In this document: piece by piece, positions 1 to 48,652 of the stretch
How positions within the stretch are numbered: the first letter of the stretch is position 1
Layout of the letters: each line of letters begins with the position of its first letter
NCBI GenBank assembly: GCA_027624955.1
Contig: JAQBTG010000002.1
Location: 24,694 to 88,693, forward strand
DNA: 64,000 nt
Source of the DNA: Pseudomonadota bacterium
GTDB lineage: Bacteria; Pseudomonadota; Alphaproteobacteria; UBA828
Direction of reading: 5' to 3'
Program-made: the position numbers and the translations under genes
Notes under the pieces: model-generated
The model's database searches: none
Told to the model about the DNA's origin: nothing
Seen by the model: the letters and a program-made list of their open reading frames with translations, nothing else

Positions 1-833
1 TCCATCGAAATTCCAACCAGGATCGCGAATACCCGCCAAATGCGCCAGAAGGCGATATCGACCGCTTGCTGCGCCTCTGCCTTTTTGCCGTTGCGAATCA
101 TGATCTGAATGACCGGCGTGCCGATCTGGGCATGGCGCGCTTCATCTGATTGGATGCTGGTGATCAGGTTTGAGAAGGTGTAATCGCCCATGTTCGCGGC
201 ATCGCGCGACAGGCCGATCATCTGGACGTTGGTCAGGCCGGTCTCAAAAGCGAAATTGAGCATGAGTGAAGTGGTCGGCGCGTCGCGCGTCATCATCACA
301 TCGTCGAGCGCATGACGGCCAGCAACGACGGCCCAATTCTGGGTGTGATGGGCCTGATGCGCCCAATCGAATTGACGGTCTTTTTTGGCTAGCGCATGGG
401 CGAACCAGAGATGGATCTGGCCGTGCCGCATTTCGTCCAGCATGCCGAAGGTCGCCATGTTGCGCATGCTCGGCGCGCGGCCGAAGCGCACCATCCGTTC
501 GTCCGCATGGCAGGCGGCATATTCGGATAAAGAGATCGAGCCATAATGCATTTTTAAGGCGCTTAAATAGGCCGGGTCGGCGTCTTCGTAATAATCGGAA
601 TGTGCGAGGGCGGTGCGGACAGAATAGGCGCCCGAGTCTTTCTCGCGCTGAATGCGGACATATTCGCGGTACGACACTTTATAGGGCTCGTCGAACGTCT
701 CCCACTCGGCGACCGGAATGCCGTAGGGATCGCTCATTTCCGGCGGGAATATTTCCTGTTCATCGACATAGCGCGGCGTCCAGTTGGTGTCGCGCGCGAG
801 GTCGTACCATTCGGAGCGTTCGAGTCTGGGCAT
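1..833 (-). CDS. Soluble di-iron monooxygenase hydroxylase alpha subunit (TmoA/TouA-like, aromatic/alkene monooxygenase). Only the N-terminal ~277 aa are present; the 3' end lies beyond the window start.
   Basis: The reverse-strand translation from the ATG at 833 (RBS GGAGG 6 nt upstream) gives MPRLERSEWYDLARDTNWTPRYVDEQEIFPPEMSDPYGIPVAEWETFDEPYKVSYREYVRIQREKDSGAYSV..., which by recall closely resembles group-2 SDIMO alpha subunits (TmoA-like). Segments such as GMLDEMRHGQ and ITSIQSDEARHAQ are present. This ORF is missing from the six-frame track because it runs off the window edge. Confidence 0.8.
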   Translation of the reverse strand, partial: MPRLERSEWYDLARDTNWTPRYVDEQEIFPPEMSDPYGIPVAEWETFDEPYKVSYREYVRIQREKDSGAYSVRTALAHSDYYEDADPAYLSALKMHYGSISLSEYAACHADERMVRFGRAPSMRNMATFGMLDEMRHGQIHLWFAHALAKKDRQFDWAHQAHHTQNWAVVAGRHALDDVMMTRDAPTTSLMLNFAFETGLTNVQMIGLSRDAANMGDYTFSNLITSIQSDEARHAQIGTPVIQIMIRNGKKAEAQQAVDIAFWRIWRVFAILVGISM

Positions 834-1040
834 TGTCGTGCCTCCATGAAGCGATGACGTGCCGCCTTAGCAGCATTCCGTAGATCAGGAGCTGCCTCTC
901 CCGAGCAGAGAAAACCTAGCCCGGCAGGACGAATTGCACCGACGGTAGCATGTTTCTGGGAATGAGTCGGTGGTTTTGATCCAAATCAGCGCGGCACATG
1001 CGTCACCCGCGACGCTGGAAAGGGGCATCGGCTCGGAGTT

Positions 1041-1120
1041 GTCAGGCCCCAGGTCCTTGGACTTGTCAGGCCCCAGGTCTTTGGACTTATCAGGCCCCAG
1101 GTCTTTGGACTTATCAGGCC
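1041..1120. repeat. Perfect/near-perfect 24-bp tandem repeat, 3.3 copies (gtcaggccccaggtcYttggactt), in the intergenic region between the hyuB-like stop and the SDIMO alpha start.
   Basis: Units lie at 1041-1064, 1065-1088 and 1089-1112, with a partial unit at 1113-1120 that overlaps the hyuB-like stop codon. The spurious plus ORF 970-1239 reads SGPRSLDL x3 across it. Confidence 0.9.
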
Positions 1121-2961
1121 AATGCCGCGAGGCGGGATTGGCGGAGTTTGGTGGTGGCGCTGATGTCGACAGCGAGATCGTCGCGCGCCGGCGAGCCGGT
1201 GATGATCACGCCATAGACCGCTTCGGCCTTGGCGCGTGAGACATAGCGCTCCTGCACATCGTTGAGAACACGTTCGGTCTCGCGCGTCAGGGGGTCGCCG
1301 TAGCCGCCACCGCCATTGTCGACGGCGCGTAATCTATCGCCCGGCGAGAGATGGCAATAGGCATCGGTGGAATAAAACTCCTCGCTGCCGTCGGCGGCAA
1401 TCTTCATTTGGATGGCGGGCTGCGACGGCAAGCCGCCGAGCACGCCCTGCGGCACATTTTCCAAGCCGTTGGCGATATTGATGATCAGCATGGGTTCGAT
1501 GCGCGGCCCCATGATCACTTCCGACGCCGGGCCGCCGCGCCGCCGTCCGGCGCCGCATGAATCCTCCAGCGCGCGCACGCTTTCAACCTGGAACGGAAAG
1601 CGCTGTTCGTTGACCTCGATGCTGTCGCGGTAGACCAGCCCGGCGCTGACCGGATTGACCATGCCGTGCATGCCGTCATTGCGCGCTGAGGCGGGCATGC
1701 CGCCGGCCGACATGAACATCTGGTTCACATAGGGTGCGCCGCCGTTGCGCCAATCCTTGCCCGAGCACACGCCCGTGCCGGCGCCGTTGCACATATTGCC
1801 CTGGCTGAAGCCATAGCCGTCGCCGAGCTGAGCGAAGCCGGCCTGAATGGTATTGATGATGGTATCGGTCATATTGGTGGTGGCGACCGAGCAGCTATGC
1901 GGAAAGCGCGGAATGCCGGTGACGCAATTTTCGCGCAGCAGAATATCCAGCCGCCGGAAGCTGCCGGAATTGTGCGGAATGTCGGGATCGAGGCAGCAGA
2001 ACACCGCTTGCGCCGCCGACATGGTGGAGGTCGCCTCGGTCAGATTTAGTCCGGCATCGACGGAATCCGGATTGTCGCGCAGATCCACCTTGATCCGGCC
2101 GTCGGTGCTGTCGATATCGATAGCGACTTTGATCTGAATGCCGTCCGGCAGAAACGGCATGATCGGATCATGCACGCCGGTGGCGGAGATGGTGCCACCC
2201 GGCAGAGCGCGGATCGCCTCGGCCGTCCGTCGCTCGGAATAATCGAACCAGTCGGCGACGAATTTGCGCGTCATGGCCTTGCCGTATTTGCCGATGAACT
2301 CCTTCAGCCGGCGCTCGCCGATGCGGGCCGCGCCCATCGCCGCGAGATAATCGCCATACCATTGATCAGGCACGCGGATGCGCCGGCGGCACATGCGGAT
2401 GATATCCTGGTTGTCCTCATAATCGCTTTGCACCTGCACACAGGGAAAGATCAGCGCGCCTTCTTGATAGACGTCCTTGGCGGCGGCGAAATAGGTCGTC
2501 GGCTGGCTATTGCCGCAATCGGCCTGATGCGCCTTGACCGCCGCCGTAAAGAAATGCTCGCCCTCAAAAAATACCGGAATGAGAAAGGTATGATCCGCGG
2601 GGTGGCTGTTGCCGACATAGGGATCATTGTCGAGAAAGGCATCGCCCTCGCGAAAATCCGGATGATATTTCGCCATCGAGGCGGTTTGCAGATGCATGCC
2701 AAACACATGAATCGGCATCGCCTCGGCGACCGCCAGAACCTCGTCATCCGAGGTGATAATCGCGCAGGAAAAATCGCGCGCGATGCCGATCACCGCCGAG
2801 CGGGCGGAGAACAACACGGTGTTGGTCATCTCACGGCAGATCGCGTCCATGCGGTTGGCCATGATGGCGAGCAGCACAGAGTCGAACTGGCCGTCCTGGT
2901 CCGCCTGGCTCGTCTGGTCCGTCCCTGTACCGGACGCGGGATTGTTCTTGGATATAGCCAT
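1114..2961 (-). CDS. Hydantoinase B / 5-oxoprolinase family protein (HyuB-like, ATP-dependent amidohydrolase beta subunit).
   Basis: A 615-aa ORF with typical HyuB architecture and length. A GGGGAG RBS sits before the ATG, and the gene lies 12 bp downstream of the hyuA-like gene, so the two are translationally coupled. Confidence 0.85.
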   Translation of the reverse strand: MAISKNNPASGTGTDQTSQADQDGQFDSVLLAIMANRMDAICREMTNTVLFSARSAVIGIARDFSCAIITSDDEVLAVAEAMPIHVFGMHLQTASMAKYHPDFREGDAFLDNDPYVGNSHPADHTFLIPVFFEGEHFFTAAVKAHQADCGNSQPTTYFAAAKDVYQEGALIFPCVQVQSDYEDNQDIIRMCRRRIRVPDQWYGDYLAAMGAARIGERRLKEFIGKYGKAMTRKFVADWFDYSERRTAEAIRALPGGTISATGVHDPIMPFLPDGIQIKVAIDIDSTDGRIKVDLRDNPDSVDAGLNLTEATSTMSAAQAVFCCLDPDIPHNSGSFRRLDILLRENCVTGIPRFPHSCSVATTNMTDTIINTIQAGFAQLGDGYGFSQGNMCNGAGTGVCSGKDWRNGGAPYVNQMFMSAGGMPASARNDGMHGMVNPVSAGLVYRDSIEVNEQRFPFQVESVRALEDSCGAGRRRGGPASEVIMGPRIEPMLIINIANGLENVPQGVLGGLPSQPAIQMKIAADGSEEFYSTDAYCHLSPGDRLRAVDNGGGGYGDPLTRETERVLNDVQERYVSRAKAEAVYGVIITGSPARDDLAVDISATTKLRQSRLAALA

Positions 2962-2973
2962 ATTTAAGCTCCC

Positions 2974-5064
2974 CTACGCCTTGCTCTCGGTTTCTGTTTC
3001 CAACATATAATTCCGCCGCGCCGTCACCCGTGCGGTGGCGCCGGGATAGACGACGATGGTGGTGGTTGGCTCCTCAATAATTGCCGGGCCAGCGATCACA
3101 GCGCCGGGGCTGAGGTCCGTGCCGACATAGACCGGCGCGTCGAGGGCGTCGTCGCCGCCGAAATAGGTTTTCGAAACACGCCTGGCTTCGGGCGCCTTTA
3201 ATTCGCCCGCCGCTTCTTCCGGCAAATTCGGCTTGTCGAGGATCGCGGTCAGCCGGCCCTTCCAATTGACGCATTCGATGGCGCCGCCTTCTTCTTTCAT
3301 GGCGTAGCGGCGGAAATGCACATCGTGGAACGCCTGCACCAAAACCTCTACATCGGCGGCGCTTTTGACCGTCTCCAGCGGCATGGCGAATTCCATTTCC
3401 CACTGTTGATTGATGTAGCGCGCCTCGACAAAATATTCGCTTTTGAACTGGTTGATGCCGCGCTCGCGCAATTCTTCGCTGAAGGCCTCGATCTGCTGGG
3501 TGATGCCGCCGAGCGCGCGATCGACGCCGGCGAAATCGAAATTTCCCGAATGGGCGTATTGGCTGGCGCTGAATTCGGCGACGATGTTGGAATATTGCCC
3601 ACCGCAGGCGCTAAGCGCCCCAGCGGTGCGCGGCACCAGCACTTTGGCGCAGCCGAGTGCCTTGGCGATGGGCAGAATATTGAGACCGGCAGCGCCGCCG
3701 CCGGCGACGAGAATGCTCTCCGCCGGGTTAACACCGTCCTGCACGGTGATTTCCTGAATCGCCTTGATCATCTGCTCACCGGCGATGGTGATGATGGCAA
3801 AGGCCGCCTGCTCAACGCTCAACTTGCTCTGATCGGCAATTGCCGAAACAGCCTTGCGCGCCGCCGCCACATCGAGCGCCATGCGCCCGCCGAGAAAGAA
3901 ATGCGGATCGATATAGCCGAGCACCACGGCGGCATCGGTGACCGTCGCTTCGGTGCCGCCGCGGCCGTAACAGGCCGGGCCGGGCATCGCGCCGGCACTC
4001 TTGGGGCCGACCCGGAGCAGGCCGCCTGAATCGATCCAGGCGATGGAGCCGCCGCCGGCGCCGACGCTCCGCACATCGACCGAGGAGAGGCCGAGATTGT
4101 GGCCGATCCATTCGCCGAGCAACCACGTCTCGCGGGTGAATTTGATTTGCCCGGCGCGCACCATGCTGACGTCGAACGTCGTGCCGCCGGTGTCGACGAT
4201 GATGACGTCGTTGCCTTCGCCTTCCGCCTCGGCATAAGCGATGCCCGCCAGGGGCGCCATGGCCGGCCCCGATTTAACCGTGTAGATCGGCTTCTCAACC
4301 ACATCTTTGACATGCATAACGCCGCCCGAGCACGCGCTCACCAGGATTTCGCCCTGATAGTTGGCCGCGCGCAGATCGCTCTCAAAGCCAGAAAGATGGT
4401 GCTGCATGAGCGGCTTTAGCGAGGCATCGATGGCGGTGGAGGAGGTGCGCGGATATTCGCGGATGATCGGATTGAGCTGATGCGACAGCGTGTAGGGAAT
4501 GCCCGGCAGGATCTCTGCAATCAATTCGCCAAGGCGCTTTTCATGCGCCGAATTGACGATCGACCAAAGCAGGCTCACCGCGACGGCCTCGATATTCATG
4601 TTCGCCAGGCCGGCGATGGTGGCGCGCGCCGCCGCTTCGTCGAGCGCTGTCTCGACGCCGCCTTCGGCATTGATGCGCTCGGGAATTTCGAAGGTGAGGC
4701 GGCGCGGCACGTAGGGCGGTGGAAACTCAATCACAATATTGAGCGGCTCGCGCTTGCCGCCTTGGCGGTACAGCAGAATGTCGGGGAAGCCTTCGGTCAC
4801 GAGGAGGGCGGTCTTGGCGGTCTTTTTTTCCACGATGGAATTGGTCGAGCGCGTGGTGCCGTATATCAAAACTTCAGTCTCGCCCAGTAGAGTCACCACC
4901 GGAACACCGATGATTTCCGCCGCATTGGTCAACGCGGCGGAAAAGCCGTCATAGCTGCGTTCGGGTGTGGTCAGCGCCTTGCCGACCACCAAATGCCCTT
5001 GTGCATCTGCAACGACGACATCGGTGAAGGTGCCGCCAGTATCGACGGCAATGCGATAGCCCAT
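2974..5064 (-). CDS. Hydantoinase A / oxoprolinase family protein (HyuA-like). The start is probably the internal Met giving MGYRIAVDTGGTFTD (5064); the longest ORF extends to 5106.
   Basis: The N-terminal DxGGTFTD ATPase motif is present (RIAVDTGGTFTDVVV). Length is about 697 aa, and it forms a pair with the downstream HyuB-like gene. Confidence 0.85.
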   Translation of the reverse strand: MGYRIAVDTGGTFTDVVVADAQGHLVVGKALTTPERSYDGFSAALTNAAEIIGVPVVTLLGETEVLIYGTTRSTNSIVEKKTAKTALLVTEGFPDILLYRQGGKREPLNIVIEFPPPYVPRRLTFEIPERINAEGGVETALDEAAARATIAGLANMNIEAVAVSLLWSIVNSAHEKRLGELIAEILPGIPYTLSHQLNPIIREYPRTSSTAIDASLKPLMQHHLSGFESDLRAANYQGEILVSACSGGVMHVKDVVEKPIYTVKSGPAMAPLAGIAYAEAEGEGNDVIIVDTGGTTFDVSMVRAGQIKFTRETWLLGEWIGHNLGLSSVDVRSVGAGGGSIAWIDSGGLLRVGPKSAGAMPGPACYGRGGTEATVTDAAVVLGYIDPHFFLGGRMALDVAAARKAVSAIADQSKLSVEQAAFAIITIAGEQMIKAIQEITVQDGVNPAESILVAGGGAAGLNILPIAKALGCAKVLVPRTAGALSACGGQYSNIVAEFSASQYAHSGNFDFAGVDRALGGITQQIEAFSEELRERGINQFKSEYFVEARYINQQWEMEFAMPLETVKSAADVEVLVQAFHDVHFRRYAMKEEGGAIECVNWKGRLTAILDKPNLPEEAAGELKAPEARRVSKTYFGGDDALDAPVYVGTDLSPGAVIAGPAIIEEPTTTIVVYPGATARVTARRNYMLETETESKA

Positions 5065-5368
5065 TCCTGCTCTCCCGATTTCTTCATATTTGGCCGTGCG
5101 TACCACGCATTTTTAAGATGCTCGACGACCTTGTCCTTGGATTCGATCTTGCGCGAATTGGAGGCGGCGATCAAATACTCAAGCGCGTCTTTGGCAAAAC
5201 AGTCGAAATTATTTTTCGCCGCGCCGACGTCTAGGCTCCTCAGCCGCACGCCATCCTGTGACCAGGCCGTTTTTTGCGCTCGATCTCCAGCCAGCCAATA
5301 TTTTTAAAGCCTTGTTGGTGGCGGCCAGCTAACGTAGCAGCCCTCTGGATTGGGAAGGCGGCAAAATT

Positions 5369-6118
5369 ATGTTGAAGGATCGCGTGGGACTGGTGACGGG
5401 TGGTGCGTCCGGAATTGGGCGGGCGACGGTACTGGCCATGGCTGCGGCGGGGGCCAAGGTTCTCGTCGCCGATATCGATGAAGCGGGCGGTGAAGCGGTG
5501 GCGCGCGAAGTAACGGAGGCCGGTGGCGTCGCCGAGTTTCTGCGCGCCGATGTGTCTAACGCGGCAGATGTGAACGCCATGGTGGCGCGCGCATTGAGCG
5601 CCTTTGGCAGGCTCGATGCCGCCGTCAACAATGCCGGCCTCGAGGGCCCTGAGGCGCCGGTACAGGGACAGGACATGGCGCAGGTGCAGCGCGTGTTCGA
5701 TATCATGATTAACGGCGTCTATCTCGCCATGCAGGCTGAGATACCGGCCATGCTGGCTGGCGGCGGTGGCGCCATCGTCAATATGAGTTCGATTTGGGGC
5801 TTGTTCGGCTACGCCGATTGGTCGCCCTATATCACCGCAAAGCACGCGGTTTCCGGCATGACCAAAGCGGTGGCGCTTGAAGTCGCGGCCCAAGGCATCC
5901 GCATCAATGCGGTTGCCCCCGGACCGATCCACACGCCGCTCCTGCTGCGCCTGTGGGATAACGATCTCTCTGGGTCGGCGGCACGCGTGCCGATGCGCCG
6001 CATCGGCCAGCCCGAGGAGGTTGCCAATGCGGTCGTCTGGTTGCTTTCAGATCAATCCAGTTTCATCACCGGCCATATCCTGCCGATCGATGGCGGCATG
6101 CTGGCCGAGAAGGGCTGA
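5369..6118 (+). CDS. SDR family NAD(P)-dependent oxidoreductase.
   Basis: It carries TGGASGIGRA (the Rossmann TGxxxGxG motif), NNAG, and the catalytic S...YxxxK (YITAKH). It is paralogous to the SDR at 33551-34303. Confidence 0.9.
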   Translation: MLKDRVGLVTGGASGIGRATVLAMAAAGAKVLVADIDEAGGEAVAREVTEAGGVAEFLRADVSNAADVNAMVARALSAFGRLDAAVNNAGLEGPEAPVQGQDMAQVQRVFDIMINGVYLAMQAEIPAMLAGGGGAIVNMSSIWGLFGYADWSPYITAKHAVSGMTKAVALEVAAQGIRINAVAPGPIHTPLLLRLWDNDLSGSAARVPMRRIGQPEEVANAVVWLLSDQSSFITGHILPIDGGMLAEKG

Positions 6119-11940: not shown

Positions 11941-11998
11941 AGAAGGCCACCTGATCTCGGAGGCCGCTGCATTGAAAACGTTGCTGTGGCTTCTGCCG
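11941..11998. repeat. Copy B of the ~58-bp direct repeat (see 6415-6472). It overlaps the annotated GTG start of the fused oxoprolinase-like ORF.
   Basis: The sequence agaaggccacctgatctcggaggccgctgcattgaaaacgttgctgtggcttctg aligns with copy A. Confidence 0.7.
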
Positions 11999-14900
11999 CT
12001 GCCGGCACTTATATTGTGGTCGCTGTCAGCCATTTTGTGGCCTATTTGGGCAACGGCAATTTCGGAGTGTTACGACGTGGGCGAACGAACGGTGATGTTG
12101 CTGTGATTCTCGGCGTAGACGTTGGCGGCACCTTCACCGACCTGCTGCTTGCCGATCCCAAGACCGGGCGCTTCGAGATTGCCAAGGTGCCCTCTACGCC
12201 AGCCGATCAGTCGGACGGGTTCATGGCCGGCATCCAGGCGCTCGGCGCCGATCCGAGCACACTCGATTCAATCATTCACGGCACGACCGTGGGCACCAAT
12301 GCGGTGCTTGAACGGAAGGGCGTGCGCTGCGGGCTGATCACCACGCGCGGCTTTCGCGACACGCTGGAGCTTGGCCGGCGCACGCGGCCCAACCCTTGGG
12401 GCATGACCGGCCATTTCGAGCCGCTCGTGCCGCGCGACCGCCGGATTGAGGTGAGCGAGCGCATCGACGCCTCGGGCCGCGTGGTGACAGTGCTCGCAGA
12501 AGACGAGGTGCGCGAAGCCGTGGAGACGCTGCGCGAAGCCGGCGCGGAAGCGCTCATCATCCATTTCATTCACTCCTACCTCAATCAGGACCACGAGCGC
12601 CGCGCCGGTGAAATCGCGCGCGAAACCTGGACCAACGGGCATATCACGCTGGGCTCTGAGGTCTTGCGCGAAGTACGCGAGTTCGAGCGCGGCAGCACGG
12701 CGGCGCTCAACGGCTATATCCAGCCCATCATGACGCGCTATCTCGGCCATCTCCAACAGCGTCTGCGCGATGCCGCGTTTGGCCATGAATTGCTCGTGAT
12801 GCAGGGCAATGGCGGCATGATGAGCGCTGCGACCGCTGGTGAAAAAGCGGTTCATACCGTGATGTCGGGTCCGGCCGCGGGTGCAATTGCCGCGGCGCAT
12901 CTCGGCAGCGCCGCGGGCTTTCCGAACGTGATCAGCTGCGACATGGGTGGCACCAGCTTCGACATCGCCATCGTAAAAAACGGCGTGCCAACGACCACGA
13001 CCGAGAAGGACATCAGCTACGGCATGCCGCTCCGCGTGCCGATGGTCGATATCCAGACCATCGGGGCAGGCGGCGGCAGCATTGCCCGCGTTGATACCGG
13101 CGGCATCCTTCGCGTCGGGCCGGAAAGCGCGGGCGCGACACCCGGCCCGATCTGCTACGGGCGGGGCGGCACCGAGCCCACCGTGACCGATGCCAACCTC
13201 CTGCTCGGGCGGATCGACCCGGATACGATCGCGGGCCTCAATACCGGCCTTGGCGCAGACGCGGTGCGGCGTGCCATTGCCGAGAAGATCGGCAAACCGC
13301 TGGGGCTCGACGCCACCGAGGCGGCAGCGGCGATCATCCGCGTGGTCGATCATCAGATGGCGGGTGCGGCCAGGCTGGTCTCGGTCGACAAGGGAAACGA
13401 CCCACGAGAGTTCGCGCTGTTCGCATTCGGTGGCGCGGGTCCGATGCACGCGACGGCGATCGCGCGCGAGCTCGGCGTGCCGCATGTGGTGGTGCCGCGC
13501 TATCCCGGCATCACCTCGGCGCTCGGCTGTGTGCTCGCCGATGTCCGCCATGATTTCGTGCAGACCCTGCACACACCGCTCGAAGACGTGGATGTTGACG
13601 AGGCGGACCGCATTCTTGCCGACCAAGCTCACGAAGGGCGCGAGGTATTGGCGCGCGAGGGCGTGGCGGTCACGGCGGTCGAGGTCAGCCACGAGGCCGA
13701 TCTCTTCTATCGCGGCCAAAGCCATATGTTCCGCGTCGCGGTTGAGAGCCCGGGCTTCTCACTGGATGCAACGCGCGAGCGCTTCGCCGATCTCTACCGC
13801 GAGCGCTTCGATATTCTTTTGCCTGAGATGCAGCCGATCCTGGTGAGCCTCCGGACCACGATTCGCGGCGTCCGCACCTCGCCCGAGCTCACCTTCACGC
13901 CGAGCGCTGCTAAGAACGATCTGGCGGCCGCGCGAATCTCAACCCGCCCGGTCTTTTTCGATGGCGCTTGGCACGAGACGCCGATCTATGAACGCGAGCG
14001 CCTGCCGGCGGAAGCTGAGATCACCGGCCCCGCCGTTATCCAGCAGCTCGATACCACCATCCTCATTGAGCCGGGTTCGACCACGCGCATCGACCGCGCG
14101 GGCAACCTGATCGTCGAGGTGCCGCAAGCCGCCGCACAGAAGATCGCTGGGGCGCTAGATGCCGTGACCCTCGCGGTTATTCAAAGCGGTCTCGAACAAG
14201 TTGCGAGCGAGATGGACCTGGTTCACCAGCGCACCTCGTTCTCGCCGGTGATCTCCGAGGCCTACGACCGATCGAACGGGATTTACGACGCCGTAACCGG
14301 CGACATCATTGCCCAGGGCGAACTTGGGCTGCCGATCTTCCTTGGCGTCATGCAATCGACGACACAAGCCGTGATCGCCGAGCGCAAGGATTTGGAGCCC
14401 GGTGACATCATCCTGATCAACGATCCGTATAAGGGCGGCACGCATCTGATGGACGTCAAGATGGTGCGCCCTTTCTACTATAAAGGCAGGCACTGGGCGT
14501 ATCTCTCCAACACGGGGCATTGGCCCGACACTGGCGGCATGGTGCCGGGCGGCTTCTCCTCCGAGGCCACTGAGATCCAGCAGGAAGGCCTGCGTCTGCC
14601 CCCGGTAAAACTTTATCGGCGCGGCGTGATCGACCAGGACATCTTGCAAATCGTGCTGGCAAACATCCGCGTGCCAGACGAACGTGTCGGCGACATCCGC
14701 GCCCAGGTGGGCGCTCTTTCGGTCGGCGAAAAACGGCTTACGGCACTGCTCGACAAATACGGCGAAGCTACAGTCAGCGCAGCCATCGAGGCGCTCAAGG
14801 ACCGCTCCGAACAGCGCATGCGCGCGCATATCGAGACCATCCCCGACGGCGCATATGTTTTTTCCAGTTATATGGACAGCGACGGTGTCGATGACGCGCC

Positions 14901-15840
14901 GCTTGAAGTGCGCGTCAACACGACCGTCAAAGGCAGCGACATCCACGTCGATTTCTCGGGCTCCAGCCCGCCTTGCCGCGGGCCTGTCAACTCGGTTTGG
15001 GCGACCACGCTGGCCTCGGTCTATTGCGCGGTTAAGCACATCTTCCCCGACGTGCCGATCAACGCCGGCTGCTTCCGGCCGATCGCCGTCACCCCACCGC
15101 ATGACACGTTTCTCTATGCGACCTATCCGCGCCCGGTTTCGGGCTGCGCCGCCGAGACCGCACAGCGCATCATGGAAGCCGTGTTCGGCGCCTTGGGCCA
15201 GGCAATCCCGGAACGCATGTTCGCCGCACCCGCCGGTACCAGCGGCAATTTCAGCTTGGGCGGCGAAGACCCCGACGAAGGGCGCCGCTACGTCATGTAC
15301 ATCTTCTCGGGCGGCGGCTACGGCGGCTGGTGGGAGACCGACGGCCTGACCAACGGCTGCTCCTCTGTCGGCATCTCCAAAACCCAGCCGGCCGAGATAT
15401 TGGAGCAGCATTACCCGATCCTGTTCGAGGAATATGCGCTCCGCGAAGGCTCGGGCGGCGCCGGGCGGCATCGCGGCGGCTTCGGCGTCAACTACCGGGT
15501 CCGCCTGTTGCGGGGCGAGGCGAAAGCCTCGTTTATGATGGATCATGGGCGCATCGGTCCGCCCGGCTTGGGTGGCGGCCTGGCGGGTGCGGTGAACGAA
15601 ATAGAGATCACGCGCGGCGGTAATACCGAGCGGCCACCGCATCTCTCCAAGGGTGAGGGCTATGCGCTTCGTCCCGGCGACGTGGTGCAGGTACGCACAC
15701 CGGGCGGCGGCGGTTACGGCGATCCGCACGCCAGGCAACGTTCGAGGGTGGTTGAGGATCTTCGCCGGAATTACCTTAGCGCCGAGGATGCGGTGCGCGA
15801 CTACGCCTTCGATCTCACTGCAGACGAAGCCGCCGAGTAA
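11986..15840 (+). CDS. Fused hydantoinase A + hydantoinase B protein (5-oxoprolinase OplA-like, ATP-hydrolysing). The true start may be the GTG near 12103, just before VILGVDVGGTFTD.
   Basis: A 1284-aa ORF. The N-terminal half has the HyuA DVGGTFTD motif. The C-terminal half from about aa 730 is HyuB-like (AVTLAVIQSGLEQVASEMDLV...). The only in-frame ATG/GTG upstream of the motif is the GTG at 11986. Confidence 0.85.
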   Translation: MASAAAGTYIVVAVSHFVAYLGNGNFGVLRRGRTNGDVAVILGVDVGGTFTDLLLADPKTGRFEIAKVPSTPADQSDGFMAGIQALGADPSTLDSIIHGTTVGTNAVLERKGVRCGLITTRGFRDTLELGRRTRPNPWGMTGHFEPLVPRDRRIEVSERIDASGRVVTVLAEDEVREAVETLREAGAEALIIHFIHSYLNQDHERRAGEIARETWTNGHITLGSEVLREVREFERGSTAALNGYIQPIMTRYLGHLQQRLRDAAFGHELLVMQGNGGMMSAATAGEKAVHTVMSGPAAGAIAAAHLGSAAGFPNVISCDMGGTSFDIAIVKNGVPTTTTEKDISYGMPLRVPMVDIQTIGAGGGSIARVDTGGILRVGPESAGATPGPICYGRGGTEPTVTDANLLLGRIDPDTIAGLNTGLGADAVRRAIAEKIGKPLGLDATEAAAAIIRVVDHQMAGAARLVSVDKGNDPREFALFAFGGAGPMHATAIARELGVPHVVVPRYPGITSALGCVLADVRHDFVQTLHTPLEDVDVDEADRILADQAHEGREVLAREGVAVTAVEVSHEADLFYRGQSHMFRVAVESPGFSLDATRERFADLYRERFDILLPEMQPILVSLRTTIRGVRTSPELTFTPSAAKNDLAAARISTRPVFFDGAWHETPIYERERLPAEAEITGPAVIQQLDTTILIEPGSTTRIDRAGNLIVEVPQAAAQKIAGALDAVTLAVIQSGLEQVASEMDLVHQRTSFSPVISEAYDRSNGIYDAVTGDIIAQGELGLPIFLGVMQSTTQAVIAERKDLEPGDIILINDPYKGGTHLMDVKMVRPFYYKGRHWAYLSNTGHWPDTGGMVPGGFSSEATEIQQEGLRLPPVKLYRRGVIDQDILQIVLANIRVPDERVGDIRAQVGALSVGEKRLTALLDKYGEATVSAAIEALKDRSEQRMRAHIETIPDGAYVFSSYMDSDGVDDAPLEVRVNTTVKGSDIHVDFSGSSPPCRGPVNSVWATTLASVYCAVKHIFPDVPINAGCFRPIAVTPPHDTFLYATYPRPVSGCAAETAQRIMEAVFGALGQAIPERMFAAPAGTSGNFSLGGEDPDEGRRYVMYIFSGGGYGGWWETDGLTNGCSSVGISKTQPAEILEQHYPILFEEYALREGSGGAGRHRGGFGVNYRVRLLRGEAKASFMMDHGRIGPPGLGGGLAGAVNEIEITRGGNTERPPHLSKGEGYALRPGDVVQVRTPGGGGYGDPHARQRSRVVEDLRRNYLSAEDAVRDYAFDLTADEAAE

Positions 15841-15899
15841 GCCGCCGAGTAAGCCCGCGACAAAGCCGCTGAATGAGCGCCTGATAAGGATATCGAAAC

Positions 15900-17237
15900 A
15901 TGACAAATTATCCCGACACCGGCTCACGCTCCGCCGCGCTCTTTAAGCGTGCGCAAGCAGTGCTGCCCGGCGGCAACTCGCGGCAAAGCGTCTATCGTGC
16001 GCCGTACCCGATCTACATCCAATCGGCCAAAGGCGCGGTGTTGACCGATGTCGACGGCATCGAGCGCACGGATTTTCTCAACAACTTCACCTCACTCATT
16101 CACGGCCATGCACATCCGGACGTGATTGCGGCGGCGGCGGCGCAGCTTCCGCTCGGCACCTGTTATGCCGGCCCGACCGAGGCGGAGATCATGCTGGCGG
16201 AGCTGATTTGCGAGCGCTTGCCTTCAGCCGAGCGCGTGCGCTTCGCGAATTCCGGCACCGAGGCGGTGATGATGACTATCAAGGCGGCGCGTGCGCATAC
16301 GGGCCGGTCGAAGATCGCGAAATGTGAAGGCGCCTATCACGGTACCTATGATTATGCCGAAGTGAGCGAAGGCGTCGGGCCGGACGTATGGTCAGCGAGC
16401 GACCCAACTGCCATCGCCACCTCGCGCGGCACGCCAGCCGGCGTGCTCAGCGATGTCGTCGTGATGCCGTTCAATGATCCGGTCGCGGCCGAACGTATCC
16501 TGACACCGGAAGCTGGCAACCTCGCGGCCATTATCATCGACCCGTTGCCCAACCGTTGCGGCTTGACACCCGCCAACCAAGTATTCCTAAAATTTCTTCG
16601 TGATTTCGCTGACCGCCACGGCATCGTCCTCATCTACGATGAAGTCATCAGCTTCCGCATTGGCTTCAATGGTGCGCAGGGCGTGTTTGGCGTGTTGCCT
16701 GACCTCACGGCGCTCGGCAAGATTGTCGGCGGCGGCTTTCCCGTCGGCGCTATCGCCGGGCGGGAAGAAGTCATGTCGGTGTTTGATCCACGGGCGAGTG
16801 CGGTCGCGCTGCCCCATGCCGGTACGTTCAACGCCAATCCAGTTACGATGGTGGCAGGGCTGACGACGATGCGCCTCCTAGACGAGAAGCGCCTGGCCGA
16901 ATTGAACGCCTTGGGTGAGAAGGCGCGTGTTGCCTTCCGCGCCGCGATGGCCGATGCGGGAGTCGCCGGGCAAGTCACCGGCGCTGGCTCGCTGTTTCGG
17001 CTTTATCTCAACGACCGCCCGATCAGCGATTACCGCTCGGCCTATGTCGATGCCGACGAAAAGGCGCGCATGGCGCGGCTCAACCGCTATTTCCTCAATC
17101 ACGGTTTCATGATGGCGCCCTACGGCATGGGCAATTTGTCTACCGCGCTCGTCGAGGCCGATATCACCCGTTTCGCCGATGTTTTGCGGGACGGATTGCG
17201 CGATCAATTGCGCAATGCCGAAGACGAAGCTGCCTAA
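15900..17237 (+). CDS. Class III pyridoxal-phosphate-dependent aminotransferase (GSA-aminomutase / omega- or beta-amino-acid transaminase-like).
   Basis: A 445-aa ORF with the class-III AT fold and HemL-like layout. It has the YDEVISFR segment; the Schiff-base lysine lies in LGKIVGGGFP. Confidence 0.8.
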   Translation: MTNYPDTGSRSAALFKRAQAVLPGGNSRQSVYRAPYPIYIQSAKGAVLTDVDGIERTDFLNNFTSLIHGHAHPDVIAAAAAQLPLGTCYAGPTEAEIMLAELICERLPSAERVRFANSGTEAVMMTIKAARAHTGRSKIAKCEGAYHGTYDYAEVSEGVGPDVWSASDPTAIATSRGTPAGVLSDVVVMPFNDPVAAERILTPEAGNLAAIIIDPLPNRCGLTPANQVFLKFLRDFADRHGIVLIYDEVISFRIGFNGAQGVFGVLPDLTALGKIVGGGFPVGAIAGREEVMSVFDPRASAVALPHAGTFNANPVTMVAGLTTMRLLDEKRLAELNALGEKARVAFRAAMADAGVAGQVTGAGSLFRLYLNDRPISDYRSAYVDADEKARMARLNRYFLNHGFMMAPYGMGNLSTALVEADITRFADVLRDGLRDQLRNAEDEAA

Positions 17238-17266
17238 CCTAATCCCGGTTTAAGGAGTATTTTCTT

Positions 17267-18160
17267 ATGGCGCGAAAAGTCATCATCACCTGCGCGGTCA
17301 CCGGCTCTGCCGATACCGTCGGCAAGAACCCAGCCGTACCGGTCACACCGCAGCAGATCGCCGATTCGGCGATAGAGGCGGCGAAGGCGGGGGCTGCGAT
17401 CGTGCATGTCCATGTGCGCGACCCCGAAACCGGCCAGGCCAGTATGGCGCCTGAGCTTTACGAGGCAACGGCGGGCCGCATCCGGGAGAGCAACACCGAC
17501 GTGGTGCTGAATCTGACCACCGGTTATGGCGGTCGCATCAGCCTCGGGCTCGATAATCCACTCGAATTCGGGCCCGGCACGACCATGACTTCGCCGGCGC
17601 GGCGGATCGAGCATGTCTTGGCGCTCAAGCCGGAAATTTGCAGCCTGGATGTCGCGACCATGAATTCCGGCGGCATCCGCGACGAGAGCGTGATGATCAA
17701 CTCGCCGCCGCATCTGCGCTACATGGCCCAGGCGATGCGCGAGAACGGCGTGGTACCGGAGCTCGAAGTGTTCGATGTCGGACATGTGCGCCTCGCCCGG
17801 CATATGCTCGAAGCTGACCAGATTGCGCGCCCCGGCTTCTTCCAGCTTTGCCTCGGAATCCAATGGGGCGCGCCTGCGACGCCTGCCGCGCTTAACTATC
17901 TGTTGACCCTGTTGCCCGAGGGCGCGCATTGGGCGGCGTTTGGCATTTCGCGCGATCAATTGCCGCTGGCTGGCCTTTCCATTCTGAGCGGCGGCCATGT
18001 GCGCACGGGGCTTGAGGACAATCTCTATCTGCGCCAGGGCGAACTTGCGCCGTCTAACGCGGCGTTGGTCGAGCAGGCTGTCACGTTGATCGAGATGTTC
18101 GGCTGCGAAGCCGCAACGCCGGCCGAGGCGCGGGATATTCTCAACCTCCGCAAGCCCTGA
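17267..18160 (+). CDS. BKACE family enzyme (3-keto-5-aminohexanoate cleavage enzyme-like, DUF849), a beta-keto acid cleavage enzyme.
   Basis: A 297-aa ORF with an AAGGAG RBS. The N-terminus VIITCAVTGS...VPVTPQQIADSAIEAAKAGAAIVHVHVRD is typical of Kce/BKACE TIM-barrel proteins. Confidence 0.8.
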   Translation: MARKVIITCAVTGSADTVGKNPAVPVTPQQIADSAIEAAKAGAAIVHVHVRDPETGQASMAPELYEATAGRIRESNTDVVLNLTTGYGGRISLGLDNPLEFGPGTTMTSPARRIEHVLALKPEICSLDVATMNSGGIRDESVMINSPPHLRYMAQAMRENGVVPELEVFDVGHVRLARHMLEADQIARPGFFQLCLGIQWGAPATPAALNYLLTLLPEGAHWAAFGISRDQLPLAGLSILSGGHVRTGLEDNLYLRQGELAPSNAALVEQAVTLIEMFGCEAATPAEARDILNLRKP

Positions 18161-18168
18161 TCCAGCCG

Positions 18169-19968
18169 ATGGCTGGCAACCCCCAGATTGAGAGTGAGGG
18201 CTATACCCTAGAGCCGATGATGCTCGCCGTGCTATCGCGGCGCTTCGAGGCGATCTGCCGCGAGATGACCAACGGCATTTTGAAGGCCAGCCGTTCTGCC
18301 GTGATCAAAAACGCGCGCGATTTCTCGGTCGGCATCCTGACCCACGATCATCGATTGATCAGCGTTGAGGACGGCCTGCCGATCCACATCACCGCCCTCG
18401 ACCTCACCACGCGCGCGATCGATCGCCTGTTCGACGATATTGGAGAGGGTGACGCTTTTCTTAACAACTGCCCCTATTACGGCGCGACGCATCACGCCGA
18501 TCTCGATGTCATCGTGCCGGTGTATTTCGAGGGGCGTATCATGTTCTGGGCGCTCGTGCGTTGCCATCATGCCGACATGGGCGCGCCGCTGCCGACGACC
18601 TATTTGCCGCATGCTGCGACGATTTATGAGGAAGGTCTGCATTTCCCCGGCGTGCGCGTGGAGGAGGGCTACAAATCCAAGGCCGATATCCTGCGTATCG
18701 GATTGACTAAGATTCGCGCGAGCAAGATCTGGCTGGGCGATTATCGGGCGCAGCTTGGCGCCTGCCGCATCGGCGAGCAGCGCTTGAAGGAGCTGGTCGA
18801 GCGCCACGGTAGTACGATGATCGAGGACTTTATCGAAGACTGGATAACCTATGGCGAGCGCCGCACCAAAGCCGCCATCGCCAGTTTGCCGGCGGGCACC
18901 TGGTCATACGCGACAAAGCATGATCCGGTGCCGGGTGTGGCGGAAGACGGCATTCCGGTGCGCGTCACGGTTACGGTCGACCCTGAAGCCGGCGAGGTCA
19001 CGGTCGATGCCCGCGACAATATCGATTGTGTGCCGGGCGGGCTCAACCTGTCCGAGGCAACGGCCACCGCGTCCTGCCGCATCGGCGTGTTCGTCAATCT
19101 CGACCCTTCGATCCCGCACAACGAAGGCAGCGCCCGCTGTATCAACGTGCTATTGCGCGACGGCTGCGTCGTCGGCCGCCCGGCCTATCCCGTCGGCACC
19201 TCGGTCGCGACGACCAACGTCAACGACCGCTTGATCAACGCGGTGGCGTGCTGCTTCGCTCAGATGGGCAGCCCGCACGGCATTGCCGAAGGCGGCGGCA
19301 TGATGGCGAGCGGGCTGGCGGTGATTTCCGGCGACGATCCGTTGCGCGGCGGGCGCGCCTATGTGAACCAGCTTTTCGTTGGCTATTCGGGCGGGCCCGG
19401 CATCCACGGCCATGACGGCTGGCTCACCTATAACGACGCCGACACCTGCGGCATGCTGATGCTTGATTCGGTCGAGGTCGACGAAGGCATGTATCCGATT
19501 TTGATCGAGGAGCGCGGGGTGGCGCCCGACACCATGGGGCATGGCCGCTGGGACGGGGCGCCGGCGATGACCGGTATCTACGGGCCGCTCGCCGCTGAAA
19601 TGACAGCGATCTATTGCAGCGACGGCGATGTGGCGGCGGCACGCGGCGTGCTCGGCGGTCATGACGGCGCGCCTTCGTGCAACTGGAAGCGCGACGGTGC
19701 GGGCGGCTGGACAGAGATGCCGAGCTTCCATACCGAAATCTGCCAGCCGGGCGAGGCGCTGCGTTTCCTGGCAGGTGGCGGTGGCGGTTACGGCAACCCA
19801 AAGGAGCGCGCGCCCGAACGCGTGGTCGAGACGGTCAATCGCGGCTGGCTCTCAGCCGAGCGCGCCGAGGCGACCTACGCGGTCAAGCTCCGAATATCTG
19901 AGGACGGCCTCGATTACGTACTCGATGACACCGCGACGGCTCAACTGCGCACCAGCAACGGCGACTGA
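18169..19968 (+). CDS. Hydantoinase B / oxoprolinase family protein (second HyuB-like paralogue).
   Basis: A 599-aa ORF that is clearly paralogous to the 1114-2961 product, with the same block order (e.g. ICREMTN, GDAFLNN.PY). Its start lies 9 bp after the BKACE stop. Confidence 0.85.
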   Translation: MAGNPQIESEGYTLEPMMLAVLSRRFEAICREMTNGILKASRSAVIKNARDFSVGILTHDHRLISVEDGLPIHITALDLTTRAIDRLFDDIGEGDAFLNNCPYYGATHHADLDVIVPVYFEGRIMFWALVRCHHADMGAPLPTTYLPHAATIYEEGLHFPGVRVEEGYKSKADILRIGLTKIRASKIWLGDYRAQLGACRIGEQRLKELVERHGSTMIEDFIEDWITYGERRTKAAIASLPAGTWSYATKHDPVPGVAEDGIPVRVTVTVDPEAGEVTVDARDNIDCVPGGLNLSEATATASCRIGVFVNLDPSIPHNEGSARCINVLLRDGCVVGRPAYPVGTSVATTNVNDRLINAVACCFAQMGSPHGIAEGGGMMASGLAVISGDDPLRGGRAYVNQLFVGYSGGPGIHGHDGWLTYNDADTCGMLMLDSVEVDEGMYPILIEERGVAPDTMGHGRWDGAPAMTGIYGPLAAEMTAIYCSDGDVAAARGVLGGHDGAPSCNWKRDGAGGWTEMPSFHTEICQPGEALRFLAGGGGGYGNPKERAPERVVETVNRGWLSAERAEATYAVKLRISEDGLDYVLDDTATAQLRTSNGD

Positions 19969-19972
19969 GCGC

Positions 19973-22030: not shown

Positions 22031-22147
22031 ATCCAGCCCTGCGACCTTCGCGGTGACAGGCGAATTTGATATCCGCTGTCAGACTTGAGCCGACCGAAGA
22101 ATCAAGTCTCGTTGGTTGCTTGGCCGCACACGCAACAGGAGCAAATA

Positions 22148-23173
22148 ATGCGTATCTATGTAATCGGCGCGGGGGCCATGGGCTCCTTGTATGGCGGGTT
22201 GTTGGCGCGAAGCGGGTGTGAGGTAATTTTTGTCGATCGCTGGCGGGAGCACATGGATGCGGTCGCGGCGGACGGGCTCCGGCTGAGCGGTATCACCGGC
22301 GATTTCACCGTGCCGGTGCGGGCGATTTACGCTTCTGAAGAAGCGGGCATGCTGGCCGACGGCGGTGACGGCGATATCGCCATTATCTTGACGGATGCCA
22401 ATTCCACCGCGTTTGCCGCCAGCCTGGCGAAGCGGCTGCTCAAGCCGGGCGGTTACGCGCTGACGCTGCAAAACGGGATTGGCAATATCGAGGCGCTGGA
22501 GGCCGAACTCGGCCGCCCACGTGTGATTGGCGGGCTGAGCTATCATAGCGCCGCCATGGTCGAACCCGGCCACGCCATCCATACTCATAAGGGACCGACC
22601 TGGATTGGCGAGCTCGACGGCACGCCAAGCGCACGGGTAAGCGCGCTGGCGACGATGCTCAGCGACGCCGGCTTTAAGCCGCAGATTGTCGCGGATATCC
22701 TCGGCCAGATCTGGACGAAATTTATCCATAATTGCGCGATTAATCCGGTCTCGGCGCTGACCGGCCTCCGGGTTGGCGAGATATCGCGGGTGGCGGAGGC
22801 CGATGCGCTGCAAAGCGCGATTATTGAAGAGGCGCTCGCGGTGGTCGCGGCCAAGGGCATTGCTCTCGTCGACAGCGACCCGATGGCGAGCATCAAGAAA
22901 TTCTGCCTCGCCAAGTTCAACAAGCCCTCCATGTTGCAGCATATGGAGCAGGGCCGGCGCACCGAGATCGACGCGCTCAACGGCGCGCTGGTGCGTGAGG
23001 GCCGCGCCCTCGGCATTGCCACGCCGTATAACGAGGCCGTGACCTGGATGGTGGCGGCGATGCAGCACCAGAACATGCAGGTGATGCACGGCGCGCCGAT
23101 CGACTATGAGGCGCTCGAGGCCGAGATTAAGGGTGGCGCGGCGGCAGACCGCTCAGAAGACGAGGAAACCTAG
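22148..23173 (+). CDS. 2-dehydropantoate 2-reductase family (PanE/ApbA-like) NAD(P)H-dependent ketoreductase.
   Basis: MRIYVIGAGAMGSLYGGLLARSG (Rossmann) with an AGGAG RBS. Length is about 341 aa. The C-terminal ketopantoate-reductase domain includes LQHMEQGRRTEIDALNG. Confidence 0.8.
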   Translation: MRIYVIGAGAMGSLYGGLLARSGCEVIFVDRWREHMDAVAADGLRLSGITGDFTVPVRAIYASEEAGMLADGGDGDIAIILTDANSTAFAASLAKRLLKPGGYALTLQNGIGNIEALEAELGRPRVIGGLSYHSAAMVEPGHAIHTHKGPTWIGELDGTPSARVSALATMLSDAGFKPQIVADILGQIWTKFIHNCAINPVSALTGLRVGEISRVAEADALQSAIIEEALAVVAAKGIALVDSDPMASIKKFCLAKFNKPSMLQHMEQGRRTEIDALNGALVREGRALGIATPYNEAVTWMVAAMQHQNMQVMHGAPIDYEALEAEIKGGAAADRSEDEET

Positions 23174-37333: not shown

Positions 37334-37364
37334 GGAATTTATCCTCGGTGCGTAACGTGTGAAG

Positions 37365-38291
<927 letters not shown>

Positions 38292-38467
38292 CTACCGGAC
38301 AAGCTGATTGCGACAGGTCATTAGATTAAATTCAAAGAGCGGTCTCATCGACTTAGGTTGGTACACTTCATTGTCGTCGTTAAAGTGAGTCTATATCAAT
38401 TACACCTAGTCTATCGGCAGTGCACTGCCTCCGCCATCCCCTGCCAGGATCAAGAGGAACATCAGAT

Positions 38468-39580: not shown

Positions 39581-39595
39581 CAAAGGAACGTCGCT

Positions 39596-48639: not shown

Positions 48640-48652
48640 AGGCTGTCTCCGC

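Follow-up and report, generated by a model that had tools for sequence, protein, structure and literature searches.

Soluble diiron monooxygenases (SDIMOs) have been studied chiefly as oxidizers of hydrocarbons and solvents, and in the literature found, only one of them, HpdABCDE of Burkholderia sp. MAK1, is linked to an N-heterocycle; it is outlined there as a five-gene SDIMO, a 2-hydroxypyridine 5-monooxygenase that opens the maleamate pathway. Two-subunit, ATP-dependent enzymes of the hydantoinase type (HyuAB) are represented by the caprolactamase CapAB of Pseudomonas jessenii (PDB 6YRA), N-methylhydantoinase, and 5-oxoprolinase, and the acetone and acetophenone carboxylases (AcxABC and Apc) belong to the same superfamily. 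In a 64,000-nucleotide (nt) stretch of contig JAQBTG010000002.1 of the Pseudomonadota bacterium assembly GCA_027624955.1 (here called the window, at its full length), genes of both kinds adjoin each other: hyuA, hyuB, and the gene for an SDIMO hydroxylase alpha subunit lie on one strand, with 280 nt between the hyuB stop (1114) and the alpha ATG (833). We read this locus, with a probability of about 0.6, as a recently assembled amide- and lactam-catabolic gene cluster of an uncultured marine proteobacterium, the steps of which may feed one another. The features of the locus in the window are the following.

2974-5064, minus strand: hyuA, ASKHA-type ATPase subunit, 696 amino acids (aa) from the ATG at 5064; the open reading frame (ORF) is open to a GTG at 5106
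2962-2973, minus strand: hyuA-hyuB spacer, 12 nt, GGGAGCTTAAAT, with a GGGAG motif inside
1114-2961, minus strand: hyuB, Hydantoinase_B subunit, 615 aa
1035-1120: 24-bp tandem repeat, unit GGCCTGATAAGTCCAAAGACCTGG on the minus strand, 3.6 copies, TRF score 144, spanning the hyuB stop codon
899-1113, minus strand: remnant of the ancestral hyuB-amidohydrolase intergenic region, aligning with the 167-bp spacer of the related locus L095, with conserved blocks TTTGGNTCAAAA... and GAAACATGCTACCGTC
1-898, minus strand: window part of an SDIMO-cupin-amidase indel cassette, with the hyuB-proximal junction at ~898/899, ~65 nt upstream of the alpha ATG
833-1, minus strand: SDIMO hydroxylase alpha, N-terminal 277 codons, cut by the left end of the window (Pfam Phenol_Hydrox, E 2e-69)

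The rest of the SDIMO operon was read from public contigs that encode identical proteins. The exact HyuB sequence is found on three contigs, two of which reach leftward, and these two share the gene order hyuA, hyuB, alpha, TmoB-like gamma, effector, beta, cupin, amidase, amidohydrolase, and a LanB-like gene. Because the NCBI protein accessions are consecutive from hyuB through the amidase, no gene is hidden between them. The genes that lie partly or wholly to the left of the window are as follows.

Left of the window plus 833-1, minus strand: alpha, full length, 501 aa, Phenol_Hydrox and YHS domains, first gene of alpha-TmoB-effector-beta-cupin-amidase
Beyond the window: TmoB-like gamma, 93 aa, PF06234
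Beyond the window: MmoB/DmpM effector, 100 aa, PF02406
Beyond the window: beta, 329 aa, PF02332
Beyond the window: Cupin_7 protein, 138 aa
Beyond the window: amidase-signature enzyme, 519 aa
Beyond the window: Amidohydro_3 protein, 557-564 aa

The adjacency of the Hyu and SDIMO genes arises because a 5.6-kb block with the genes for alpha, gamma, effector, beta, cupin, and amidase is present here and absent from a 91% relative. In that relative (L095; HyuA 91%, HyuB 90%, and amidohydrolase 91% identical), hyuA, hyuB, and the amidohydrolase gene are contiguous, and we therefore regard the block as an indel cassette. DNA alignment showed that L095 is collinear with the window lineage on either side of the block; homology to L095 stops at ...CTCGG(G/T)A (~898/899), and the block interrupts the 167-bp L095 spacer between hyuB and the amidohydrolase gene, with ...TTCGGTA on one side and ACGG... 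on the other. The locus L097 (HyuB 95% identical) has the same arrangement as the window and carries CGGTA at both clean junctions of the block. Since an SDIMO after hyuB is missing in three outgroups (L094, L095, and L109), a gain of the cassette in the window lineage appears to be more parsimonious; alternatively, L095 may have lost the cassette by microhomology. Whichever direction the indel took, these alignments mark the Hyu-SDIMO adjacency as a strain-level polymorphism and not a conserved operon. Across strains, alpha is 99% identical and the flanking genes are 93-95% identical.

The 24-bp repeat at the 3' end of hyuB is present in three full copies in the window and in L002 (2026-2110), in two copies in L001 (11842-11905), and in none in L097, and L095 has one degenerate proto-copy. 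The window and L002 (GCA_027592445.1, a "Pseudomonadota bacterium" metagenome-assembled genome [MAG]) agree in both repeat copy number and length of the hyuB-alpha gap. The repeat was considered as the cassette junction and set aside, as the junction lies ~140 nt further, at ~898/899. No sigma-70 promoter consensus or intrinsic terminator was found on the coding (minus) strand of the 280-nt gap, and a candidate sigma-54 promoter upstream of alpha was dropped because the spacing of its GGCACG-N-CGC motif is off by one base. A search of the gap for a structured RNA or riboswitch returned zero Rfam matches and a fold z-score of -0.4, and no signal of foreign origin was seen in the cassette, the GC and GC3 values of which are not distinctive.

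The full-length alpha subunit has TouA of toluene/o-xylene monooxygenase (ToMO) and TmoA of toluene 4-monooxygenase (T4MO) as its best PDB matches (E 1e-197 to 1e-191), and the six diiron ligands (E104, E134, H137, E197, E231, and H234 in T4MO numbering) are invariant in a 25-sequence alignment that includes it. An earlier note on this DNA had called a TmoA-like SDIMO here, on the strand of hyuA and hyuB and 280 nt from the hyuB stop; the ORFs and Pfam matches bear out the three genes and their positions, and the matches to TouA and TmoA bear out the family, which is group 2. It had also suggested a leftward extension to find the remaining subunits; there, the gamma, effector, and beta genes were found but ferredoxin and reductase genes were not. 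Specifically, gene calls and tblastn with four Rieske queries gave no credible Rieske ferredoxin (TmoC/TouC) in the 64-kb window, L001, or L097, and tblastn with two queries gave no credible reductase (TmoF/TouF) in the 64-kb window or its extensions, the leftward extension searched for electron-transfer genes being 10 kb; a cupin gene sits after beta. The sole Rieske domain in the window is that of a 497-aa alpha subunit of a ring-hydroxylating oxygenase (47.2-48.7 kb). A single FNR-type reductase was seen there (25449-27098, minus strand), a 550-aa protein with a PNPOx-like N-terminal domain, FAD_binding_6, and NAD_binding_1 and without a 2Fe-2S domain; it is an unlikely partner of the SDIMO.

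Database and genome scans placed the window alpha in a subclade whose members are 60-76% identical to it, compared with 54-58% for canonical toluene/alkene monooxygenases. Relative to 32 canonical loci, the pocket of the subclade differs at positions 176 (F to L/M), 200 (F to L), 205 (F to M), 175 (F to A), 103 (V/G to S/T), 222 (K to N), and 225 (Q to T). The window alpha itself has L176, L200, M205, A175, S103, and H141, the last (Q141H) being an extra change that is not common to the whole subclade, and thus does not have the Phe-lined pocket (F176, F200, and F205) of the canonical loci. These substitutions mark the window SDIMO as a member of a distinct, uncharacterized group-2 subclade with a remodeled pocket. 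In a neighbor-joining tree, the window alpha clusters with those of alphaproteobacterial operons that also have no Rieske gene (L014, L043, L007, and L009), and this Rieske-less A-B-D-E layout is kept in L007, L009, L014, L043, and L113 (alpha 73-76% identical). Because a Rieske gene is present in a second SDIMO locus of two of the Rieske-less MAGs (L021 with L007 and L028 with L014), a supply of ferredoxin in trans is reasonable to propose. Clusters of the order alpha-TmoB-Rieske-effector without a beta gene were seen in a large group of alphaproteobacterial MAGs (L006, L019, L024-L026, L028, L030-L037, and L039), many of them long-read assemblies; that of L006 lies near the ribosomal protein L13/S9 genes with BolA adjacent, and L018 holds two divergent partial clusters, one of alpha-TmoB-Rieske-effector and one of alpha-TmoB-beta. 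Such beta-less and split clusters suggest that components may be shared among paralogous SDIMOs.

Hyu genes were found within 10 kb of none of the 32 canonical toluene-monooxygenase loci, and no paper linking hydantoinase/oxoprolinase genes with an SDIMO or toluene monooxygenase was found in the literature searched, which agrees with the view of the earlier note that the pairing is unusual. Within the subclade, Pseudonocardia xishanensis, four Actinomadura species, and a Dehalococcoidia MAG (alpha 73-75% identical) have hyuA-hyuB directly upstream of alpha, as part of its operon, and their alphas form one monophyletic clade. A metagenome contig (L114) carries the same Hyu lineage as the actinomycete pairs (54-59% identical) divergently upstream of a Rieske-less operon, and in L053, hyuB-hyuA lies downstream of the SDIMO with a molybdenum hydroxylase adjacent. 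An NCS2 nucleobase permease gene lies directly upstream of alpha in Reyranella (L005), an Acetobacteraceae MAG, Thermopolyspora, and Nonomuraea (loci including L049, L051, and L052), and the NCS2-type permease YicO holds the same position on a plasmid of Mycobacterium sp. THAF192 (L117, CP045327.1); actinomycete clusters have a PucR regulator and an NCS1-like permease (a weak match). Other recurrent neighbors are NicX (a NicX-type dioxygenase adjoins the SDIMO in the Reyranella relative), xanthine-dehydrogenase-family and molybdopterin oxidoreductases, a RutB-like amidohydrolase, and allophanate hydrolase. These contexts suggest that SDIMOs of the subclade repeatedly neighbor ATP-dependent lactamases and genes for the transport and breakdown of nucleobase-type compounds, a pattern that would be new, and a functional tie between the subclade and ATP-dependent lactamases is plausible.

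Further genes were noted around these relatives. A molybdopterin oxidoreductase annotated as "acetylene hydratase" repeatedly follows subclade SDIMOs (L117, L005, L049, L113, and L012); in L012, the place of hyuAB is taken by the molybdoenzyme as a 1204-aa fusion with an FNR-Fer2 reductase. An ABM monooxygenase and a Pyr_redox_2/BedA-type ferredoxin reductase also follow in Reyranella (L005) and on the THAF192 plasmid, and the latter carries allophanate hydrolase and RutB-like amidohydrolase genes too.

The Hyu pair itself has the domains expected of its family, with matches of the hyuA product to Hydantoinase_A (core, 1e-77), Hydant_A_N, and Hydant_A_C (remaining E-values 1e-41 and 3e-18) and of the hyuB product to Hydantoinase_B (E 2e-120), all of which exceed the Pfam gathering scores. 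Relatives of HyuA align from residue 15 (Met15) of the 710-aa ORF onward and gene callers report 696 aa, so ATG 5064 is the likely start; the earlier note's length for HyuB (615 aa) stands, and its 697 aa for HyuA should probably be read as 696 aa. That note had also described the genes as translationally coupled. They are adjacent with zero overlap, and since the spacer is only 12 nt and the Shine-Dalgarno-like GGGAG, as read from the sequence, directly abuts the hyuA stop, close coupling is plausible. Alignment showed two intact DxGGTxxD phosphate-binding motifs in HyuA, AVDTGGTFTDV (residues ~20-30) and VDTGGTTFDVS (~303-313), and HyuB has an N-terminal extension of ~25 aa relative to caprolactamase-type relatives.

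For both subunits, the PDB ranking is led by the caprolactamase 6YRA, followed by a fused N-methylhydantoinase (7HK5), acetophenone carboxylase, and, far behind, acetone carboxylase. The top matches are 6yra_A for HyuA (E 6e-118, with 7hk5 second) and 6yra_B for HyuB (E 4e-56); matches to Apc delta (E 2e-27) and Acx alpha (E 6e-14) are weak, and the latter (phmmer against 5m45_A) covers only residues 97-263 of HyuB. The best NCBIfam models are likewise those of caprolactamase (NF050156 and NF050157; 544 and 249 bits, the 249 bits being for CapB/HyuB), against an equivalog cut-off of 1000 bits. A CapAB ortholog was ruled out on these scores, since four other Hyu systems (the Pseudonocardia pair, the two other window systems, and L053) score similarly; the match is therefore a family marker and not a substrate call. 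None of the NCBIfam acetone carboxylase models match the pair, and the acetophenone carboxylase models (ApcA, ApcC, and ApcD) reach 108-310 bits against cut-offs of 1250-1500. Acetone carboxylase has a gamma subunit of ~170 aa, the gene for which adjoins the alpha and beta genes. No gamma subunit gene was found between or after hyuA, hyuB, and alpha, where the gaps are just 12 nt and 280 nt. An acetone or acetophenone carboxylase was thus rejected on subunit content, subunit size, and the PDB and NCBIfam rankings. By homology, HyuAB is a generic two-subunit, ATP-dependent cyclic-amide hydrolase of the hydantoinase/oxoprolinase type and not a ketone carboxylase, as the earlier note had judged from the subunit sizes and the missing gamma subunit, and its expected chemistry is ATP-driven cyclic-amide hydrolysis.

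HyuB orthologs at 75-96% identity are numerous, and we compared 26 loci anchored on them, annotating the loci of relatives by tblastn, clustering, and targeted Pfam scans. Most of these hyuB orthologs (75-93%, mainly on marine metagenome contigs) are lone, without hyuA within 10 kb and without an SDIMO, and their contexts vary; L097 (95%) alone repeats the arrangement of the window, and conserved hyuAB-SDIMO synteny in this Hyu lineage was accordingly discarded. The persistence of HyuB without its ATPase partner at the orphan loci (L087-L093, L096, L098-L107, and L109-L111) is unexpected for the family, and in L094, hyuA has decayed to three frame-shifted fragments. At L109 (9256-17409; HyuB 91%), the genes after an orphan hyuB encode an OYE-type flavin oxidoreductase, a class-III aminotransferase, and an amidase that shares 57% identity with that of the cassette; judged by gene content, a different oxidoreductase module occupies a similar position after hyuB there. 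The earlier note had seen a generic Hyu pair without a conserved SDIMO linkage as the finding that would count against its proposal. The pair is indeed generic and its hyuB orthologs have no SDIMO link, yet relatives of the SDIMO adjoin another HyuAB lineage. Because these close SDIMO homologs carry a different HyuAB lineage in the same operon or, in L114, divergently upstream, a functional tie is still plausible.

The other enzymes of the cluster also point to amide chemistry. The cassette amidase reaches the cut-off of NCBIfam PRK07235 and matches the Rhodococcus sp. N-771 amidase (PDB 3a1k, E 6e-134), and the resident amidohydrolase, which in L095 lies directly 3' of hyuB, is D-aminoacylase-like. 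The cupin has intact motifs GAKLPIHMHPEIEQAYILEG and GEYVWRHGGSIH, with a 3His-1Glu metal site, and its ChrR-like matches are weak. Two further features of the window lie on the other strand.

5369-6118, plus strand: short-chain dehydrogenase (SDR), 249 aa, adh_short and NCBIfam SDR models, divergent to hyuA
11986-23173, plus strand: second lactam-type cluster, an operon with a fused HyuA-HyuB/OplAH (1284 aa), a class-III aminotransferase, BKACE, hyuB (599 aa), hyuA (~683 aa), and a PanE/ApbA-like reductase

The SDR is at most a possible member of the cluster; in L097 and L095 its homolog is elsewhere or flipped, so that the closest relatives do not share its position. The window is rich in lactam and amide genes, including two further Hyu systems, an omega-aminotransferase, BKACE, and a formamidase. 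At 36524-40354, two adjoining genes for LigB-family dioxygenase subunits (270 and 304 aa, which match AmnA/AmnB in size) accompany a formamidase/acetamidase and a metallo-beta-lactamase-fold protein; AmnA/AmnB are the subunits of 2-aminophenol 1,6-dioxygenase. The Rieske ring-hydroxylating oxygenase alpha subunit mentioned above is encoded at 47239-48729. The LigB pair and the Rieske oxygenase suggest aromatic-amine or N-aromatic catabolism in the same region, which is thus an island for amide, lactam, and aromatic-amine catabolism; a shared theme is accordingly likely. Unrelated to the Hyu-SDIMO locus, a bacterial member of the microtubule-associated tyrosine carboxypeptidase (MATCAP) family (28512-29807, minus strand; E 1e-121) is encoded beside a class-II glutamine amidotransferase gene.

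If the steps encoded at the locus do feed one another, the hydroxylase would be supplied with electrons by a Rieske ferredoxin and a reductase from other loci of the genome and would hydroxylate an aromatic amide or a polar ring that contains nitrogen. The cupin might then cleave or isomerize the hydroxylated ring, and the amidase, HyuAB, and the D-aminoacylase-like amidohydrolase could open and hydrolyze the resulting lactam or amide bonds, releasing ammonia; the cassette would have been retained beside hyuAB because one step feeds the next. Hydroxylation adjacent to a ring nitrogen yields a lactam tautomer, the class of substrate opened by HyuAB enzymes, and a coupling of the locus to N-heterocycle breakdown is plausible on the gene content. 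That hyuAB and the cassette act in one pathway is a tentative proposal, simple coincidence being about as likely. More speculatively, and we would not expect all of it to hold, the subclade could be a functionally new group-2 branch that hydroxylates polar N-heterocycles (nucleobase-, pyridone-, or imidazole-like) beside the nitrogen; the product would tautomerize to a lactam- or hydantoin-like ring, which HyuAB would open and from which amidases would release ammonia. This would be an undescribed aerobic mineralization route, built independently with two unrelated HyuAB lineages and with ferredoxin and reductase borrowed from another locus.

Several points weigh against the favored reading. 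The direction of the indel is drawn from parsimony, and a hydroxylase whose electron-transfer genes are not encoded in cis might have no activity. The Hyu lineage beside related SDIMOs is just 29-34% identical to the window pair and need not share its substrate, and the window is thus a separate juxtaposition, with a distant paralog. The contexts of the subclade are mixed: PRISE and 2OG-dependent oxygenases, or a Rieske oxygenase, come after some of the SDIMOs. In one genome, an ortholog of hyuB (78%) is ~1.15 Mb away from an SDIMO alpha (72%) on one 1.79-Mb contig, and the three Hyu systems in 22 kb of the window make accidental adjacency likelier, since the regional abundance of Hyu genes raises the background chance of finding one beside any inserted block. 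It is thus possible, if on balance doubtful, that an independent SDIMO-cupin-amidase module (acting, for example, on an aromatic hydrocarbon or amide) landed or survived in a Hyu-crowded region by pure coincidence, with HyuAB and the amidohydrolase serving an unrelated lactam or N-acyl amino acid; L095, which has hyuAB-amidohydrolase without the cassette, and the hyuB orthologs, mostly orphans in unrelated contexts, fit such a history, as do the distant Hyu paralog, the 1.15-Mb separation, and the three neighboring Hyu systems. Coincidence accounts less readily for Hyu genes beside the SDIMO subclade in at least three independent arrangements (against 0 of 32 canonical loci), for the common orientation of hyuAB and the cassette genes with no terminator detected from hyuB to alpha, and for the amide-bond hydrolases that cassette and resident genes have as a common theme.

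The missing ferredoxin and reductase, sought across 64 kb and the 10-kb extension, could also mean that a four-gene SDIMO has lost its partners and is a nonfunctional, decaying remnant whose position has no physiological meaning. We consider this improbable: the four SDIMO genes are intact with all six iron ligands, the 99% identity of alpha between strains against 93-95% for its flanks points to purifying selection, the Rieske-less A-B-D-E layout is retained in several species at 73-76% alpha identity, and the second, Rieske-bearing SDIMO locus in two such MAGs is a potential supply in trans. Even less is to be said for a ketone route, in which the SDIMO would convert an alkane or alkene, by way of a secondary alcohol, to a ketone that HyuAB would fix as an enzyme like acetone or acetophenone carboxylase. 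Membership of those carboxylases in the HyuAB superfamily and the weak Apc delta and Acx alpha matches would fit, but the gamma gene and the additional Apc subunits are missing, HyuB is far shorter than Acx alpha and aligns with it over one segment only, the carboxylase models match below cut-off or not at all, and the neighbors are amidases and amidohydrolases, not acetoacetate-activating enzymes; we regard this route as very improbable. The earlier note had offered a ketone or a lactam downstream of the monooxygenase, and the lactam alone stays plausible, given the related SDIMOs (73-75% alpha) with the other HyuAB lineage upstream. A recently assembled amide- and lactam-catabolic cluster is the reading that we favor.

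If this reading is correct, the substrate range of SDIMOs would be wider than that of the hydrocarbon and solvent oxidizers, in a subclade that spans marine Alphaproteobacteria, actinomycetes, and Chloroflexi, and the subclade would point to a recycling route for dissolved organic nitrogen in ring compounds. The cassette polymorphism is a natural experiment, with near-identical strains with and without the 5.6-kb block, and the ferredoxin-less and beta-less operons raise the question of how oxygenase parts are shared between paralogous loci. For annotation, a Hyu pair beside an SDIMO need not mean acetone carboxylase.

Compared with CapAB, N-methylhydantoinase, and 5-oxoprolinase, the window pair has the same two-subunit architecture, Pfam domains, and intact HyuA ATP motifs; unlike CapAB, it has equivalog scores below the cut-off and an N-terminal extension on HyuB, and its hyuB orthologs are mostly without a nearby hyuA. 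It shares superfamily and ATP dependence with AcxABC and Apc but differs in having no gamma or epsilon subunits, in subunit sizes (Acx alpha 776 aa and HyuB 615 aa), and in its only partial similarity to Acx alpha. The SDIMO resembles ToMO TouABCDEF and T4MO TmoABCDEF in the full-length homology of alpha, in its identical diiron ligands and their numbering, and in having the TmoB-like gamma, MmoB/DmpM effector, and beta genes in the same order. In contrast to these systems, the window cluster has no TmoC gene between gamma and effector and no TmoF gene after beta, where cupin and amidase genes stand instead; the pocket of its alpha carries F176L, F200L, F205M, F175A, G/V103S, and Q141H, and the genomic contexts of the subclade point toward polar N-heterocycles rather than hydrocarbons.

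The nearest functional precedent is HpdABCDE, compared here by description only. Five-gene clusters are the rule in the subclade of the window SDIMO, the Reyranella relative has a NicX-type dioxygenase, and the later steps of the HpdABCDE pathway are ring cleavage and amide hydrolysis, which the cupin and amidase of the window locus could provide. Unlike HpdABCDE, the window locus has four SDIMO genes, and homologs of NicX (none in the window), NicD, and NicF are absent. We know of no report of HyuAB in the hpd cluster. By analogy only, the locus can also be compared with the tetrahydrofuran/dioxane pathway, in which SDIMO hydroxylation beside the heteroatom is followed by dehydrogenation to a lactone, ring hydrolysis, and an aldehyde dehydrogenase step; the tetrahydrofuran enzymes fall in group 5 of the SDIMOs and not in group 2. 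Related SDIMO clusters contain genes for an SDR, an aldehyde dehydrogenase, and regulators of the GabR-like type (MocR or PucR), and a nitrogen version of the same combination of SDIMO, SDR/aldehyde dehydrogenase, and ring-opening hydrolase would lead from a heterocycle through a lactam to an omega-amino acid.

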